Shown here one piece after another: positions 21,185 to 22,149 of a stretch of DNA of 64,000 nt (position 1 is its first letter; each line of letters begins with the position of its first letter). Under the pieces are notes generated by a model. That model was given only the letters and a program-made list of their open reading frames with translations, searched no databases and was not told the DNA's origin. Location: assembly GCA_964577565.1 (NCBI GenBank), contig CAZNZL010000001.1, positions 270,566-334,565 of the forward strand, read 5' to 3'. Origin of the DNA: an uncultured Candidatus Saccharibacteria bacterium (GTDB lineage: Bacteria; Patescibacteriota; Saccharimonadia; Saccharimonadales; JAGQNJ01). The translations under genes were made by a program, and so were the position numbers.

Positions 21185-21237
21185 TTCGCTTTCGTCCTTT
21201 TGGACTCGTCAGCATGAACGCACATTCATGGAGCGAA
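21185..21237 (-). ncRNA. type III hammerhead ribozyme (HHR-1)
   Basis: Minus strand: UUCGCU-C^-CAUGAA-UGUGCG-UUCAUG-CUGACGA-GUCC-AAAA-GGAC-GAA-AGCGAA. All invariant core nucleotides are present (C3 U4 G5 A6 N7 G8 A9, G12 A13 A14, A15.1-U16.1, C17, G10.1-C11.1). Stems I and III are 6 bp and stem II is 4 bp. Confidence 0.9.
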
Positions 21238-21341
21238 TATAACAGTGTAGTGGTTACCAAGGTGGCGGGGAGTGGCATCGAACACGACGTGCTCACCACT
21301 ATGGGTTATACCTACGGCCCCGCCACCAATGCGGCTCAGGT

Positions 21342-21881
21342 TCAGCTGTGTATCTCGGGTGCGGGTTCTTCAGGAACGAAGAGCTCTGGTTGCACCCCAC
21401 TTCCCCTGTAGATGAGGATCGCTGCGTTGGGAAAGAAGCGCTTGACCACCTCTGGCAACGGACGGCCGATACGTAGCATGTCCTCGTTGCAGACGACAGC
21501 CTTCACTCGCTGCGCTTCCTCGCCAGACAGACCGGTCACCTCACGGATGTGGTCGTACACCGCTCGGTAGAAGACCTTGCTCGTGATGAACCTCTCGAGC
21601 TTATTGGCCGAAATGTGGACGAAGTGCTCGAGAAGGCGAAGCTTTAAAGGTCCGACATCGAGATGCGGGTAAATGAGGTCCCACATGAGTTCGCTTGTTT
21701 GAGATCCCGTCTCGAGGTAATCTACGAGGGCAACACGCCGAGGGGCTTGCTCCCCGTAGAGCACACGAAGCACCGAGTTTTCGTGTAGGTGCTCCATTGC
21801 GCGGCCCTGTTCCGTAACCACCAGGACGATAGGGGCAGCGTCTCTTGCGCTATCCTCTCCGTCCTCGTCCTTCTTGGACAT
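21342..21881 (-). CDS. hypothetical protein, 179 aa (cargo of M1), G+C-rich
   Basis: ATG at 21881 follows AAGGAGACACC. The ORF track's longer version (to 21935) lacks an RBS. No family recognised. A 60-nt sample (21481-21540) counts 38 G+C. Confidence 0.6.
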   Translation of the reverse strand: MSKKDEDGEDSARDAAPIVLVVTEQGRAMEHLHENSVLRVLYGEQAPRRVALVDYLETGSQTSELMWDLIYPHLDVGPLKLRLLEHFVHISANKLERFITSKVFYRAVYDHIREVTGLSGEEAQRVKAVVCNEDMLRIGRPLPEVVKRFFPNAAILIYRGSGVQPELFVPEEPAPEIHS

Positions 21882-22050
21882 GGTGTCTCCTTTGCCTAAT
21901 ACTAGAACTTTTCCAGTACGGCAACAAACCAACATAGATATTAGTTTATTGCCACACTGGAATCACTACACTGTTAAAGTACTTTAAAGCCGTTATGCCG
22001 CTTTAAAGAAAAAAGAGTGGAACACAAATTGCTCAACACCCTATACATAT

Positions 22051-22079
22051 GTTATAGCATCTTAATGCTACTTTGTCTA
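22051..22079 (-). promoter_or_regulatory. sigma70-like promoter of module M1
   Basis: TAGACA, 17 nt spacer, TATAAC. It lies 16 nt downstream of HHR-2 in RNA sense. Confidence 0.5.
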
Positions 22080-22095
22080 TATACTGTGGTAAATT

Positions 22096-22149
22096 TTCGC
22101 TTTCGTCCTTTTAGGACTCATCAGCATGAACACACATTCATGGAGCGAA
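22096..22149 (-). ncRNA. type III hammerhead ribozyme (HHR-2)
   Basis: Minus strand: UUCGCU-C^-CAUGAA-UGUGUG-UUCAUG-CUGAUGA-GUCC-UAAAA-GGAC-GAA-AGCGAA. Canonical CUGAUGA...GAAA core. Differs from HHR-1 only at N7, one loop-1 base and one extra loop-2 base. Confidence 0.9.

Follow-up and report, generated by a model that had tools for sequence, protein, structure and literature searches.

Type III hammerhead ribozymes at the 3' ends of recurrent promoter-to-hammerhead gene cassettes in Saccharibacteria and related Patescibacteria

Self-cleaving ribozymes are, to our knowledge, common in bacteria, where their biological role is largely unknown. Cleavage by a hammerhead leaves a 5'-OH and a 2',3'-cyclic phosphate, and a cyclic-phosphate end at the base of a helix resists 3' exonucleases and poly(A) polymerase. 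Retrozymes are eukaryotic, non-coding elements that carry hammerheads within long direct repeats (hundreds of nucleotides) and depend on retrotransposon machinery. In the engineered Tornado system, a ribozyme at both ends flanks a closing stem, which holds the 5'-OH and the 2',3'-cyclic phosphate for RtcB. A helix between the 5' leader and the 3' end closes and stabilizes type I toxin mRNAs such as hok (fbi/tac), in which 3' processing also matters.

In bacteria, several same-strand hammerheads were found to bracket single genes of non-constant identity, one of them the anti-restriction gene ardA, and such tandem hammerheads cut long transcripts to gene-length RNAs in vitro; circular products were considered and none was detected (Perreault et al. 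2011, PMC3088659). Among other bacterial RNAs, most RAGATH motifs have no known function (PMC11061315). The window described here, a 64-kb stretch of DNA from an uncultured Candidatus Saccharibacteria bacterium, resembles the clusters of Perreault et al. in that multiple hammerheads surround single variable genes (the window pair and 7 further pairs; 96 clusters from 114 cargo ORFs). An earlier note on this DNA had proposed, as speculation, that the RNA between the two window hammerheads could be released and circularized. In our comparison, the unit that is conserved extends from a promoter to a hammerhead and not from one hammerhead to the next.

The window hammerheads and their cassettes

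The window contains two cassettes back to back on the minus strand, M2 and then M1, with the following features listed in the direction of transcription.

22970..22999, minus strand: M2 promoter, TTGACA, 18 nt, TG-extended TATAAT; 12/12 match to consensus
22928..22962, minus strand: M2 5' hairpin (H5), lower stem GGGUG/CACCC, UU bulge, upper stem GAG/UUC
22912..22922, minus strand: 5' (leader) strand of the M2 long-range helix P0, UGACAAGCAGG, the canonical sequence
22777..22848, minus strand: RAGATH-10-like element of the M2 leader, its closing helix taking in the Shine-Dalgarno GAGGAG
22287..22769, minus strand: M2 cargo ORF (ORF2), 160 aa, with no detectable homologue
22224..22238, minus strand: second P0 leader strand sequence, located in the M2 3' UTR, UGGCAAGCAGACAAG, a local rival partner for the P0 3' strand
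22152..22162, minus strand: M2 P0 3' strand, CCUGCUUGUCA, ending 2 nt before stem III
22093..22149, minus strand: HHR-2, type III hammerhead, predicted to cleave between C22143 and C22142
22051..22079, minus strand: M1 promoter-like site, TAGACA, 17 nt, TG-extended TATAAC, beginning 13 nt past HHR-2
22015..22043, minus strand: M1 5' hairpin (H5), GGGUG/CACUC with UUGAG...UUC
21964..21976, minus strand: M1 P0 5' strand, UAACAGUGUAGUG, a compensated variant
21913..21960, minus strand: M1 leader hairpin of about 24 bp, directly 5' of the Shine-Dalgarno AAGGAG
21342..21881, minus strand: M1 cargo ORF (ORF1), 179 aa, of a small fast-evolving family
21261..21327, minus strand: three-way junction of the M1 3' UTR, closed by GGUGGCGGGG/CCCCGCCACC
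21240..21252, minus strand: M1 P0 3' strand, CACUACACUGUUA, ending 2 nt before stem III
21182..21237, minus strand: HHR-1, type III hammerhead, predicted to cleave between C21231 and C21230

HHR-2 reads UUCGCUC^CAUGAAU-GUGU-GUUCAUG-CUGAUGAG-UCCUAAAAGGA-CGAAA-GCGAA from 22149 to 22093, with the cut marked by ^, and HHR-1, which is ~90% identical, follows the same design with CUGACGAG. Both contain the CUGANGA and GAAA cores and a CUC triplet, with a stem I of 7 bp, a stem II of 4-5 bp that is closed by a C-G pair, and a stem III of 6 bp. The minimum free energy (MFE) structure of each is the hammerhead fold, in which stems I and II are capped by loops and stem III is open; the core, the triplet, stems I and II and the open stem III together assign both to type III. 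HHR-1 adjoins the stop codon of a convergent glycoside hydrolase gene, which ends at 21183. The core pattern matched five times in the window against 0.11 expected, and three of these matches are HHR-1 and HHR-2, the latter matched twice in overlapping positions because two CGAAA sites there can each close the pattern. Two further matches (53844-53864 and 60532-60561) were rejected as chance, as they have no stems I and III. No hammerhead was found on the plus strand of the window.

The Rfam scan of the window returned no ribozyme at the gathering threshold, and only weak matches in a permissive scan. HHR-2 scored 28.9 bits against RF00008 (Hammerhead_3), below the gathering cut-off of 48.5; HHR-1 aligned with the same model only poorly, as a type I hammerhead; and none of 18 related loci reached the cut-off. 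The sub-threshold scores are a limit of the model and not of the motif. The presence of two complete type III hammerheads, 912 nt apart on the minus strand and placed as the earlier note had read them, is confirmed by their complete folds and by covariation in 117 copies, described below.

Promoter, 5' hairpin and hammerhead are the only parts that M1 and M2 have in common. The shared segments are the ~55-nt hammerhead and a ~70-nt promoter/hairpin block, with a repeated segment of about 55-130 nt, and the promoter/hairpin block was found again just 5' of hammerhead-linked ORFs in other genomes. The layout of the M2 promoter, upstream of the leader helix strand, is the same in many other cassettes. 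The M1 promoter-like site was read from sequence and aligned with the M2 promoter; its -10 box, TATAAC, is degenerate and without the conserved final T, and so fails the promoter scanner's rule for a last-base T. H5 of M2, which was folded computationally, is common to M1, and its lower stem covaries in other genomes (CUUCG/CGAAG, UUUUG/CAAAA) with UUGAG...CUCC kept. The 5' hairpin was also considered as a second ribozyme that would make a 5'-OH, and was rejected, as it is only ~30 nt long and fits no known class. The M1 leader hairpin is conserved in four loci that carry ORF1-family homologues (L120-L123), as is the M1 three-way junction, the latter with compensatory changes. The MFE fold of the 912-nt stretch between the two predicted cuts recovers all cassette elements (z = -6.55).

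Recurrence of the cassette in other genomes

Hammerheads of this lineage were sought in other assemblies, and the more than 117 matches listed are almost all in Saccharibacteria and other Patescibacteria. Complete hammerheads number 122, in 104 of 120 sequences; 88 of these 104 loci contain one hammerhead, 14 contain two and two contain three, as counted within a fetched stretch of up to 8 kb. The catalytic core is invariant in the 117 relatives, and the cleavage triplet is CUC in 102 of 118, with a G at the cleavage position in none. Across 117 related copies, 93.4% of the stem positions are paired, compared with 30-47% when the partners are slid, a result to be read in the light of the finder, which pre-selected copies whose stems I and III each had 4 bp or more. 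Double-sided compensatory changes number 316, and none of 500 shuffles reached the observed values. Close tandem pairs number eight, made up of the window pair and 7 further pairs. Such pairs recur in 6 other loci, and tandem neighbours resemble each other more than distant copies in the same genome do. Literature searches gave no relevant account of hammerheads in Saccharibacteria, Patescibacteria or CPR bacteria, nor of hammerheads that accompany anti-defence genes.

The hammerhead is the last element of a cassette whose anatomy recurs in other genomes, with covariation in both the hammerhead and P0. The order is a sigma-70-like promoter with an extended -10 box, a short 5' hairpin, the P0 leader strand, an RBS-bearing leader, one small GC-rich ORF, a structured 3' UTR, the P0 3' strand, ~2 nt and the type III hammerhead. 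These cassettes form a large and regular set in Saccharibacteria and related Patescibacteria.

P0 is a 13-bp long-range helix between the 5' leader and the region just before the hammerhead, with the consensus UGACAAGCAGAC / GUCUGCUUGUCA; between its 3' strand and stem III lie 0-4 nt (mode 2). With the cassette's own leader, a duplex of at least -25 kcal/mol in strength was found in 42% of cassettes, compared with 8.6% of cross-module controls (p = 7e-8). The P0 positions outside the anchoring covary, and here too 0 of 500 shuffles reached the observed values. The canonical 3' strand is detectable in 58 and the 5' strand in 46 of 117 cassettes (about half), and further cassettes carry compensated variants. 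M1 and its homologues have a fully compensated variant; P0 of M1 (z = -5.0) was also recovered independently in the whole-unit MFE fold. A local copy of the P0 leader strand is present in 13 of 117 cassettes, and in M2 the local pairing forms a long hairpin (z = -3.95). Wobble counts in P0 are 22 G.U versus 14 A.C (p = 0.12), an asymmetry that does not by itself separate an RNA helix from a DNA inverted repeat. L120-L123 keep P0 and have no canonical hammerhead, so the hammerhead is not indispensable to the cargo. A helix of this kind beside a hammerhead appears to be undescribed so far.

Nearly every hammerhead is accompanied by a same-strand ORF that ends a median of 106 nt upstream and has a median length of 141 aa. 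The cargo is hypervariable, with 96 clusters from 114 ORFs, and its GC content is 7 points higher than that of the remaining locus, an excess seen in 87 of 111 cassettes (p = 9e-14). Some of it is counter-defence-like, including Tad4 and matches to Csx3 ring-nuclease models. A word-based protein search returned only the self-match for ORF1 and nothing for ORF2, and an exhaustive HMMER search found nine ORF1 homologues of the same length with 29-36% identity. Neither ORF matched Pfam or PHROGs. The single-sequence AlphaFold model of ORF1 was unusable (pLDDT 45); the model built from 10 sequences reached pLDDT 77.7, and the PDB and BFVD libraries searched contained no matching fold. The ORF2 frame is backed by its GC1/GC2/GC3 values of 0.61/0.36/0.73. 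The gene caller picked an antisense ORF over ORF2.

The window cassettes are chromosomal and lie between an NDH-2-like gene and the glycoside hydrolase gene, and their flanking genes are housekeeping genes. Elsewhere, cassettes likewise sit scattered among housekeeping genes and are at times clustered. A phage blastn search and two pattern scans of viral contigs gave no matches; three matches in a third viral pattern scan were rejected as chance in GC-rich coding DNA. No relatives were found in a synteny scan of metagenome contigs with the NDH-2 protein, and thus no empty site could be defined. Identical window DNA was assembled in two further runs. The identical start of two Logan contigs (L001 and L002, runs SRR7082966 and SRR7082976) is not interpretable as a transcript end.

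The 912-nt interval and a proposed role of the hammerhead

The predicted cuts at 22143/22142 and 21231/21230 bound an interval of 912 nt (22142..21231), as the earlier note had calculated, and its inventory of that interval was also right; the interval holds the HHR-2 body, the promoter of M1 with its leader, the ORF of 179 aa and the 7 nt with which HHR-1 begins. The 5'-OH and 2',3'-cyclic phosphate that it assigned to the ends fit established hammerhead chemistry. Read-through from M2, on which it depended, is plausible because HHR-2 can act only as part of a transcript, nothing convincing as a terminator separates it from ORF1, and the M1 -10 box is degenerate. Double cleavage after such read-through could free a linear 912-nt RNA, and ligation of its ends would restore a complete chimeric stem III at the window junction, again as proposed. 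The ribozymes, sites, length and contents of the earlier interpretation were correct and its read-through is plausible; its circularized unit is not supported, and the resemblance to retrozymes and viroid-like elements breaks down at the features that define them. The interval from hammerhead to hammerhead is unsupported as a circularized functional unit, since the conserved unit runs from promoter to hammerhead and most loci (88 of 104) contain just one hammerhead. The 912 nt measure how far apart the two adjacent cassettes have their 3' ends.

We propose that the hammerhead probably acts as a 3'-end-forming insulator within a promoter-to-hammerhead cargo cassette and that the tandem pair, on read-through, would yield a linear 912-nt RNA. 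The nascent RNA would be cut by the hammerhead 9 nt past P0 to give a single-gene mRNA with a 2',3'-cyclic phosphate at the foot of P0, which P0 would clamp against the leader. Both mRNA ends would be shielded from exonucleases by the joint action of 5' hairpin, P0 and cyclic phosphate, and the cut would uncouple the cargo mRNA from downstream transcription; a cut beside P0, with end protection and uncoupling, would make the hammerhead an insulator that forms the 3' end. After read-through from M2, the two cuts would release the linear 912-nt RNA, a processed form of the M1 mRNA that is extended at its 5' end by the body of HHR-2 and the sequence of the M1 promoter. Only 11 of 117 hammerheads have a run of at least five T in the 40 nt that follow (T runs were counted without hairpin scoring), so the 3' end is not usually set by an intrinsic terminator downstream.

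The cut could in principle destabilize the mRNA instead of stabilizing it. The hammerhead might lower expression by removing a stabilizing downstream sequence or by exposing the mRNA, or might exert control through competition between P0 and local pairing. The local sequence that competes for the P0 3' strand, seen in M2 and carried by 13 of 117 cassettes, would be a possible switch, and the RAGATH-10-like leader pairs with the ribosome-binding site. This reading is nevertheless unlikely, given that the cut leaves the cyclic phosphate at a helix base, which is a protective end, and that near-consensus promoters are ill-suited to low expression. The P0 strands could also be the terminal inverted repeats of a DNA-level mobile cassette, in which a recombinase or transposase swaps the cargo between a fixed promoter and hammerhead. 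The repeat sequence is kept across distant genomes while the cargo is hypervariable, both strands change together as terminal repeats also would, G.U is not significantly above A.C, and the scattered, sometimes clustered cassettes between housekeeping genes would fit as well. Yet the repeats keep a constant, short spacing to two covarying RNA structures, the 5' hairpin and the hammerhead; a mobile unit of this kind would not include the promoter and the hammerhead; the many coexisting repeat sequences speak against one recognizing enzyme; and the window has no evident target-site duplication and no recombinase seen next to its cassettes. We consider such a DNA element quite unlikely.

Circularization of the 912-nt RNA is chemically possible and unsupported. 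In the earlier model, double cleavage followed by an RtcB-type ligase or the reverse hammerhead reaction would give a DNA-encoded circular RNA carrying ORF1. Both hammerheads are intact and on the same strand, the ends would carry suitable chemistry, the chimeric junction stem III is intact in the window, no terminator separates M2 from M1, the 912-nt stretch is highly structured, and close tandem pairs occur in the 6 other loci. The wider set of cassettes points the other way, and we regard this model as very unlikely. With one hammerhead in 88 of 104 loci, most cassettes have no 5' ribozyme, and the conserved architecture is out of register with a hammerhead-to-hammerhead unit. The junction hammerhead would be broken in three of the eight close tandem pairs, although each hammerhead's own stem III is intact, and the downstream cassette has its own promoter-like site in six of the eight. 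No RtcB domain was found in the ten ORFs of 358-596 aa scanned in the 64-kb window, and a back-splice junction pattern had no match in metagenome contigs, a negative that carries no information because the organism is rare in them. Circles have also been sought for tandem bacterial hammerheads and not found (PMC3088659). A variant, in which P0 brings the ends of the cargo RNA close for ligation in cassettes that lie behind another hammerhead or have their 5' hairpin processed by an unrecognized activity, would produce circular mRNAs or, equivalently, let a ribozyme-delimited RNA shuffle the cargo; we hold it to be just as improbable. Retrozyme-like mobility, by which a ribozyme-delimited RNA is reverse transcribed and re-inserted, would account for scattered, sometimes tandem copies with conserved ends and for the greater likeness of tandem neighbours than of distant copies in the same genome. 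We regard it as extremely unlikely: no reverse transcriptase was found among the ORFs examined near the window cassettes; the promoter lies outside the promoter-driven transcript and so could not be copied from the cassette RNA; the cassettes are protein-coding with a repeated segment of only about 55-130 nt; and the defining features of retrozymes are lacking, as set out below.

As a 3'-end-forming insulator, the bacterial hammerhead would gain a concrete, testable role, that of providing a protected, insulated 3' end. The window locus is an entry to more than 100 copies in ultra-small, host-dependent Saccharibacteria and related Patescibacteria, a set that couples a hammerhead, fixed 2 nt away, to a covarying 5'-3' helix, a strong promoter and a compositionally foreign small gene. 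Such a pool of fast-evolving, partly counter-defence-like genes may matter for the dealings of these episymbionts with hosts or phages. Were the circular reading true, the locus would represent natural, exonuclease-proof circular mRNAs in bacteria for hypervariable, possibly counter-defence proteins, and a bacterial, protein-coding counterpart to hammerhead circular RNAs.

Comparison with known systems

The window pair shares with retrozymes the tandem hammerheads on genomic DNA around a unit of ~0.6-1 kb and ends that would suit RtcB or tRNA ligase. The earlier note drew this parallel and a second, superficial one with viroid-like elements, and the defining features compared here are absent for both. 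Unlike the long direct repeats and non-coding unit of retrozymes, the window unit contains a conserved protein-coding ORF and only about 55-130 nt of repeat, and its relatives are mostly solitary, each with a promoter. Viroid- and Obelisk-like RNAs are RNA-only with no chromosomal template and have ribozymes in both polarities and a rod-like fold, whereas the window sequence is chromosomal, with hammerheads on the minus strand only and a branched MFE fold. A ribozyme or nuclease that makes a 5'-OH does not precede every unit, the window being among the minority with a second hammerhead.

Engineered ribozyme insulators and Tornado resemble the cassette in that a self-cleaving ribozyme sets an exact transcript end beside a helix. 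They differ in what lies ahead of the P0 leader strand, which in the cassette is no ribozyme but a triphosphate end made at the promoter or, in the tandem cassette, ~165 nt of extra RNA. The hok-type mRNAs are likewise closed by a long-distance 5'-3' helix; they differ from the cassettes in encoding short membrane peptides, in having an antisense RNA partner and in being processed by exonuclease trimming and not by a ribozyme.

The M2 leader scored 25.7 bits against RAGATH-10 (RF03147), below the cut-off of 41.2, and is at best a divergent relative. RAGATH-10 does pass at the equivalent position, at leader and start codon, in two other cassettes, L097 (55 bits) and L048 (43.8 bits), which gives this orphan motif a context. 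The motif covers the leader only; the promoter, 5' hairpin, P0 and hammerhead of the cassette lie outside it, and the M1 leader is unrelated to it.

The clusters of Perreault et al. include ardA, and the cargo described here includes Tad4 and the Csx3-model matches. Those clusters belong to prophage or integrase surroundings, with hammerheads of types I and II among them (PMC3088659), whereas the hammerheads described here are all type III, on Saccharibacteria chromosomes with housekeeping neighbours and no phage or viral match. No description of a per-gene promoter, a 5' hairpin or a helix adjoining the ribozyme was found in the literature searched, and it is these three elements that further distinguish the cassettes from the Perreault clusters.

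Terminal hammerheads and their distribution

Two neighbouring minus-strand cassettes, M2 upstream and M1 downstream, carry ORF2 (160 aa) and ORF1 (179 aa) as cargo, and each ends in a type III hammerhead:

22149-22093, minus strand: HHR-2, type III hammerhead at the end of M2, predicted to cut after C22143
21237-21182, minus strand: HHR-1, type III hammerhead at the end of M1, predicted to cut after C21231

The two hammerheads are near-identical, each composed of CUGANGA and GAAA cores, a CUC cleavage triplet, and stems I, II and III of 7, 4-5 and 6 bp, the last open; the type III fold is the minimum-energy structure of each. 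Their predicted cleavage sites lie 912 nt apart and bound the interval 22142..21231, in exact agreement with the earlier note. The core pattern is matched five times in the window against 0.11 expected, and three of these matches represent HHR-1 and HHR-2, the latter being matched twice in overlap. The matches at 53844-53864 (minus) and 60532-60561 (plus) are without stems I and III and were rejected as chance. Rfam at its gathering threshold did not report either window hammerhead; HHR-2 scored 28.9 bits with Hammerhead_3 (cut-off 48.5).

A pattern of core, stem II and inner stem III, run against a one-genome-per-species set of prokaryotes, matched more than 117 stretches; among the matches listed, almost all were from assemblies of Candidatus Saccharibacteria or other Patescibacteria, and several matches per genome were common. 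A structure-aware finder recovered 122 complete type III hammerheads in 104 of 120 sequences. With the caveat that this finder accepted only copies whose stems I and III had 4 bp or more, the three helices are kept in 93.4% of cells across 117 aligned copies (30-47% with partners slid) and show 316 double-sided compensatory changes, values reached by none of 500 shuffles. Because the helices are kept and carry compensatory changes, we infer that the hammerheads are real and under selection. In one assembly (DASZWB01; loci L003, L012, L029 and L043) the hammerheads of tandem neighbours are near-identical, while copies elsewhere in that genome differ in stems I and III, a pattern that hints that cassettes multiply locally or recombine via their conserved ends.

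Cassette architecture and the long-range helix P0

The cassette reads as promoter, 5' hairpin, leader strand of P0 (a 13-bp long-range helix), leader, ORF, 3' UTR, 3' strand of P0, NN and hammerhead, and all of its elements appear, unprompted, in the minimum-energy fold of the 912-nt stretch (z = -6.55). Beyond the hammerhead, M1 and M2 have in common only the promoter and a hairpin formed by the first ~45 nt of the transcript, in which a UU bulge separates the lower stem, GGGUG/CAC(C/U)C, from the upper one, GAG/UUC. The promoter and hairpin block is also positioned just upstream of hammerhead-linked ORFs in other genomes. Covariation of the lower stem is seen there (CUUCG/CGAAG, UUUUG/CAAAA), and the -10 box is commonly of an extended form (TATGCTAtAAT). 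In M1 the -10 box (22051-22056, minus) reads TATAAC in place of TATAAT. The missing final T, a conserved base, points to a weak promoter, and M1 may depend on read-through from M2. The window cassettes are located between genes for an NDH-2-like oxidoreductase and an MGH1-like glycoside hydrolase, the stop codon of the latter adjoining HHR-1, and found no match in the phage and viral collections searched.

P0 was first noticed in four homologue loci of the ORF1 family (L120-L123), which have ACAGAGUAGU in their leaders and ACUACUCUGU in their 3' UTRs; the M1 counterparts, AACAGUGUAGUG and CACUACACUGUU, are again complementary, with two compensated positions. When the 28 nt immediately 5' of stem III were examined in all modules, a duplex of -25 kcal/mol or stronger was formed with the cassette's own leader in 42% of cassettes and with the leaders of other cassettes in 8.6% (p = 7e-8). 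The consensus pairs the leader strand 5'-UGACAAGCAGAC with GUCUGCUUGUCA, the latter ending 0-4 nt, mostly 2 nt, before stem III; M2 has the canonical sequence, while M1 and several other loci have fully compensated variants. With both strands anchored on a conserved 10-mer only, 82-86% of copies still pair at the three positions beyond the anchor, where 21 double-sided changes were counted, and pairing ends after position 13 (0 of 500 shuffles reached the observed values).

The M2 3' UTR also contains a second copy of the P0 leader strand (22224-22238, minus). With an upstream AGCGAAAG, a mimic of the 3' strand of stem III, this copy folds into a long local hairpin (z = -3.95), a competitor of the long-range helix that also encloses the cleaved 3' end. 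Such local copies are present in 13 of 117 cassettes, hinting at a possible structural switch. The ORF1-family loci keep the leader hairpin, P0 and a 3' UTR three-way junction (L120 636-800, L121 4501-4650, L123 1067-1200, L122 1523-1700) without a canonical hammerhead. Downstream of the P0 3' strand, L120, L121 and L123 have YUUCACCCA, then an AT-rich hairpin and (U)AG-NUGRAA, possibly the remains of a hammerhead or else some other element; Rfam gave no match in L120, the one homologue locus searched.

Cargo ORFs

A same-strand ORF, with a median length of 141 aa, precedes nearly every hammerhead, its end lying a median of 106 nt from the cut. The cargo is extremely diverse (96 BLASTP clusters from 114 ORFs) and compositionally foreign: its GC exceeds that of the remaining locus by 7 points, a difference seen in 87 of 111 cases (p = 9e-14). 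The window shows the same contrast, its cargo ORFs having GC3 values of 0.68 and 0.73, compared with 0.43-0.53 in neighbouring host genes. Most cargo ORFs are without a known domain. Those recognised across loci L003-L119 include four Tad4 proteins of the anti-Thoeris family, and further matches are to models of Csx3, Csx15 and Csx20 and, in ~15 cases, to families of phage proteins. Together with the GC excess, these suggest that Saccharibacteria have a pool of genes for counter-defence or of other foreign origin.

ORF1 appeared orphan-like in a word-based search, while an exhaustive HMMER search returned nine homologues; because these are of the same length and 29-36% identical, ORF1 is taken as a real, fast-evolving protein. 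Its AlphaFold model (pLDDT 77.7) had no match in the PDB or a viral structure library. No homologue was found for ORF2. The automatic gene caller of the Logan contigs picked a 161-aa antisense ORF (22320-22805, plus) over ORF2, a call that is probably wrong, since the minus-strand frame agrees better with the cassette orientation and with the GC1/GC2/GC3 values.

The proposed 3' end, the 912-nt RNA and known systems

The most fitting description of the locus is a pair of expression cassettes, each terminated by a hammerhead and clamped by a helix, that carry hypervariable small genes and belong to a kind found in many genomes of Saccharibacteria and related Patescibacteria. The hammerhead is proposed to act as an insulator that forms the 3' end. 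Cleavage 9 nt beyond P0 would give the 3' end ...P0-NN-UUCGCUC, its cyclic phosphate lying at the base of P0, which would clamp this end to the leader, while the 5' hairpin would cap the opposite end of the mRNA. In bacterial RNA decay, a structured 5' end, a helix-adjacent 3' end and a non-polyadenylatable 3' terminus all slow exonucleolytic degradation. Because a T run (at least 5) follows within 40 nt downstream of only 11 of 117 hammerheads, the data fit a transcript end set by the ribozyme rather than by a downstream terminator.

It is less likely that the cut down-regulates the cargo. P0 could instead act in DNA, as the terminal inverted repeat of a mobile cassette; its sequence conservation and the non-significant wobble asymmetry (22 G.U vs 14 A.C, p = 0.12) would allow this, but P0 is positioned at fixed short distances from two RNA structures, and the promoter and ribozyme both lie outside it. 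Retrozyme-like mobility of the cassettes is also less likely, as the locus fails retrozyme membership on tested features.

The earlier note had proposed that read-through from M2 and cleavage at both hammerheads release a 912-nt RNA that might be circularised. The release is plausible: because HHR-2 must be transcribed to act, no convincing terminator was found between HHR-2 and ORF1, and the M1 -10 box is TATAAC, M1 is probably reached by transcription from M2. Cleavage at both sites would in that case yield a 912-nt RNA with a 5'-OH and a 2',3'-cyclic phosphate, which we read as processed M1 mRNA with a 5' extension. Two Logan contigs 100% identical to the window, L001 (1-2410, SRR7082966) and L002 (1-2200, SRR7082976), begin at the same base, 22941 (minus), in the loop of the M2 5' hairpin ~22 nt after the predicted start site, cross both hammerheads and continue for 500-700 nt antisense to the glycoside hydrolase gene. 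They are evidence of read-through if the runs are RNA libraries, and may equally reflect an assembly break at an AT-rich near-palindrome.

Only two points speak for a functional circle: the chemistry would permit ligation of the 912-nt ends, and joining them in the window would restore a good hammerhead. The interval does not coincide with the conserved cassette, starting and ending inside the terminal ribozymes of successive cassettes. A single hammerhead is present in 88 of 104 hammerhead loci (stretches of up to 8 kb each), which means that the ribozyme cannot need a second copy for its usual function. Close same-strand pairs elsewhere are spaced by 617, 644, 684, 862, 325, 864 and 1090 nt (912 in the window), with a promoter-like site 2-37 nt after the upstream hammerhead in six of eight pairs. 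Every hammerhead of these pairs keeps its own stem III (5-8 bp), whereas the chimeric stem III of the hypothetical circle is broken in three of the eight pairs, which argues for selection on each ribozyme in the linear precursor and not on the junction. No RtcB domain was found in the ten window ORFs scanned (358-596 aa). The junction sequence (21231/22142) had no matches in metagenome contigs, a result that carries no weight because the organism is rare there. Multiple bacterial hammerheads flanking single genes of inconstant identity were described by Perreault et al. 2011 (PMC3088659), who showed cleavage into gene-length RNAs and explicitly considered spliced or circular products, detecting neither. 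Together with the register, the lone hammerheads and the broken junctions, this leaves the circular-RNA interpretation unsupported.

The M2 leader (22777-22848, minus) is a weak match to RAGATH-10 (25.7 bits), which passes its cut-off at the identical cassette position in two related loci, L097 (2466-2543, minus, 55 bits) and L048 (1039-1104, minus, 43.8 bits). RAGATH-10 turns out to be the leader, with its ribosome-binding site, in a subset of hammerhead cassettes, and part of the cassette is therefore already catalogued. In the literature searched, neither the ensemble of promoter, 5' hairpin, P0 and hammerhead nor hammerheads in Saccharibacteria were found described. Retrozyme, viroid-like and Obelisk-like membership each fails on tested features of the window locus, and the window cassettes are a variant of the known arrangement of hammerheads flanking variable genes.
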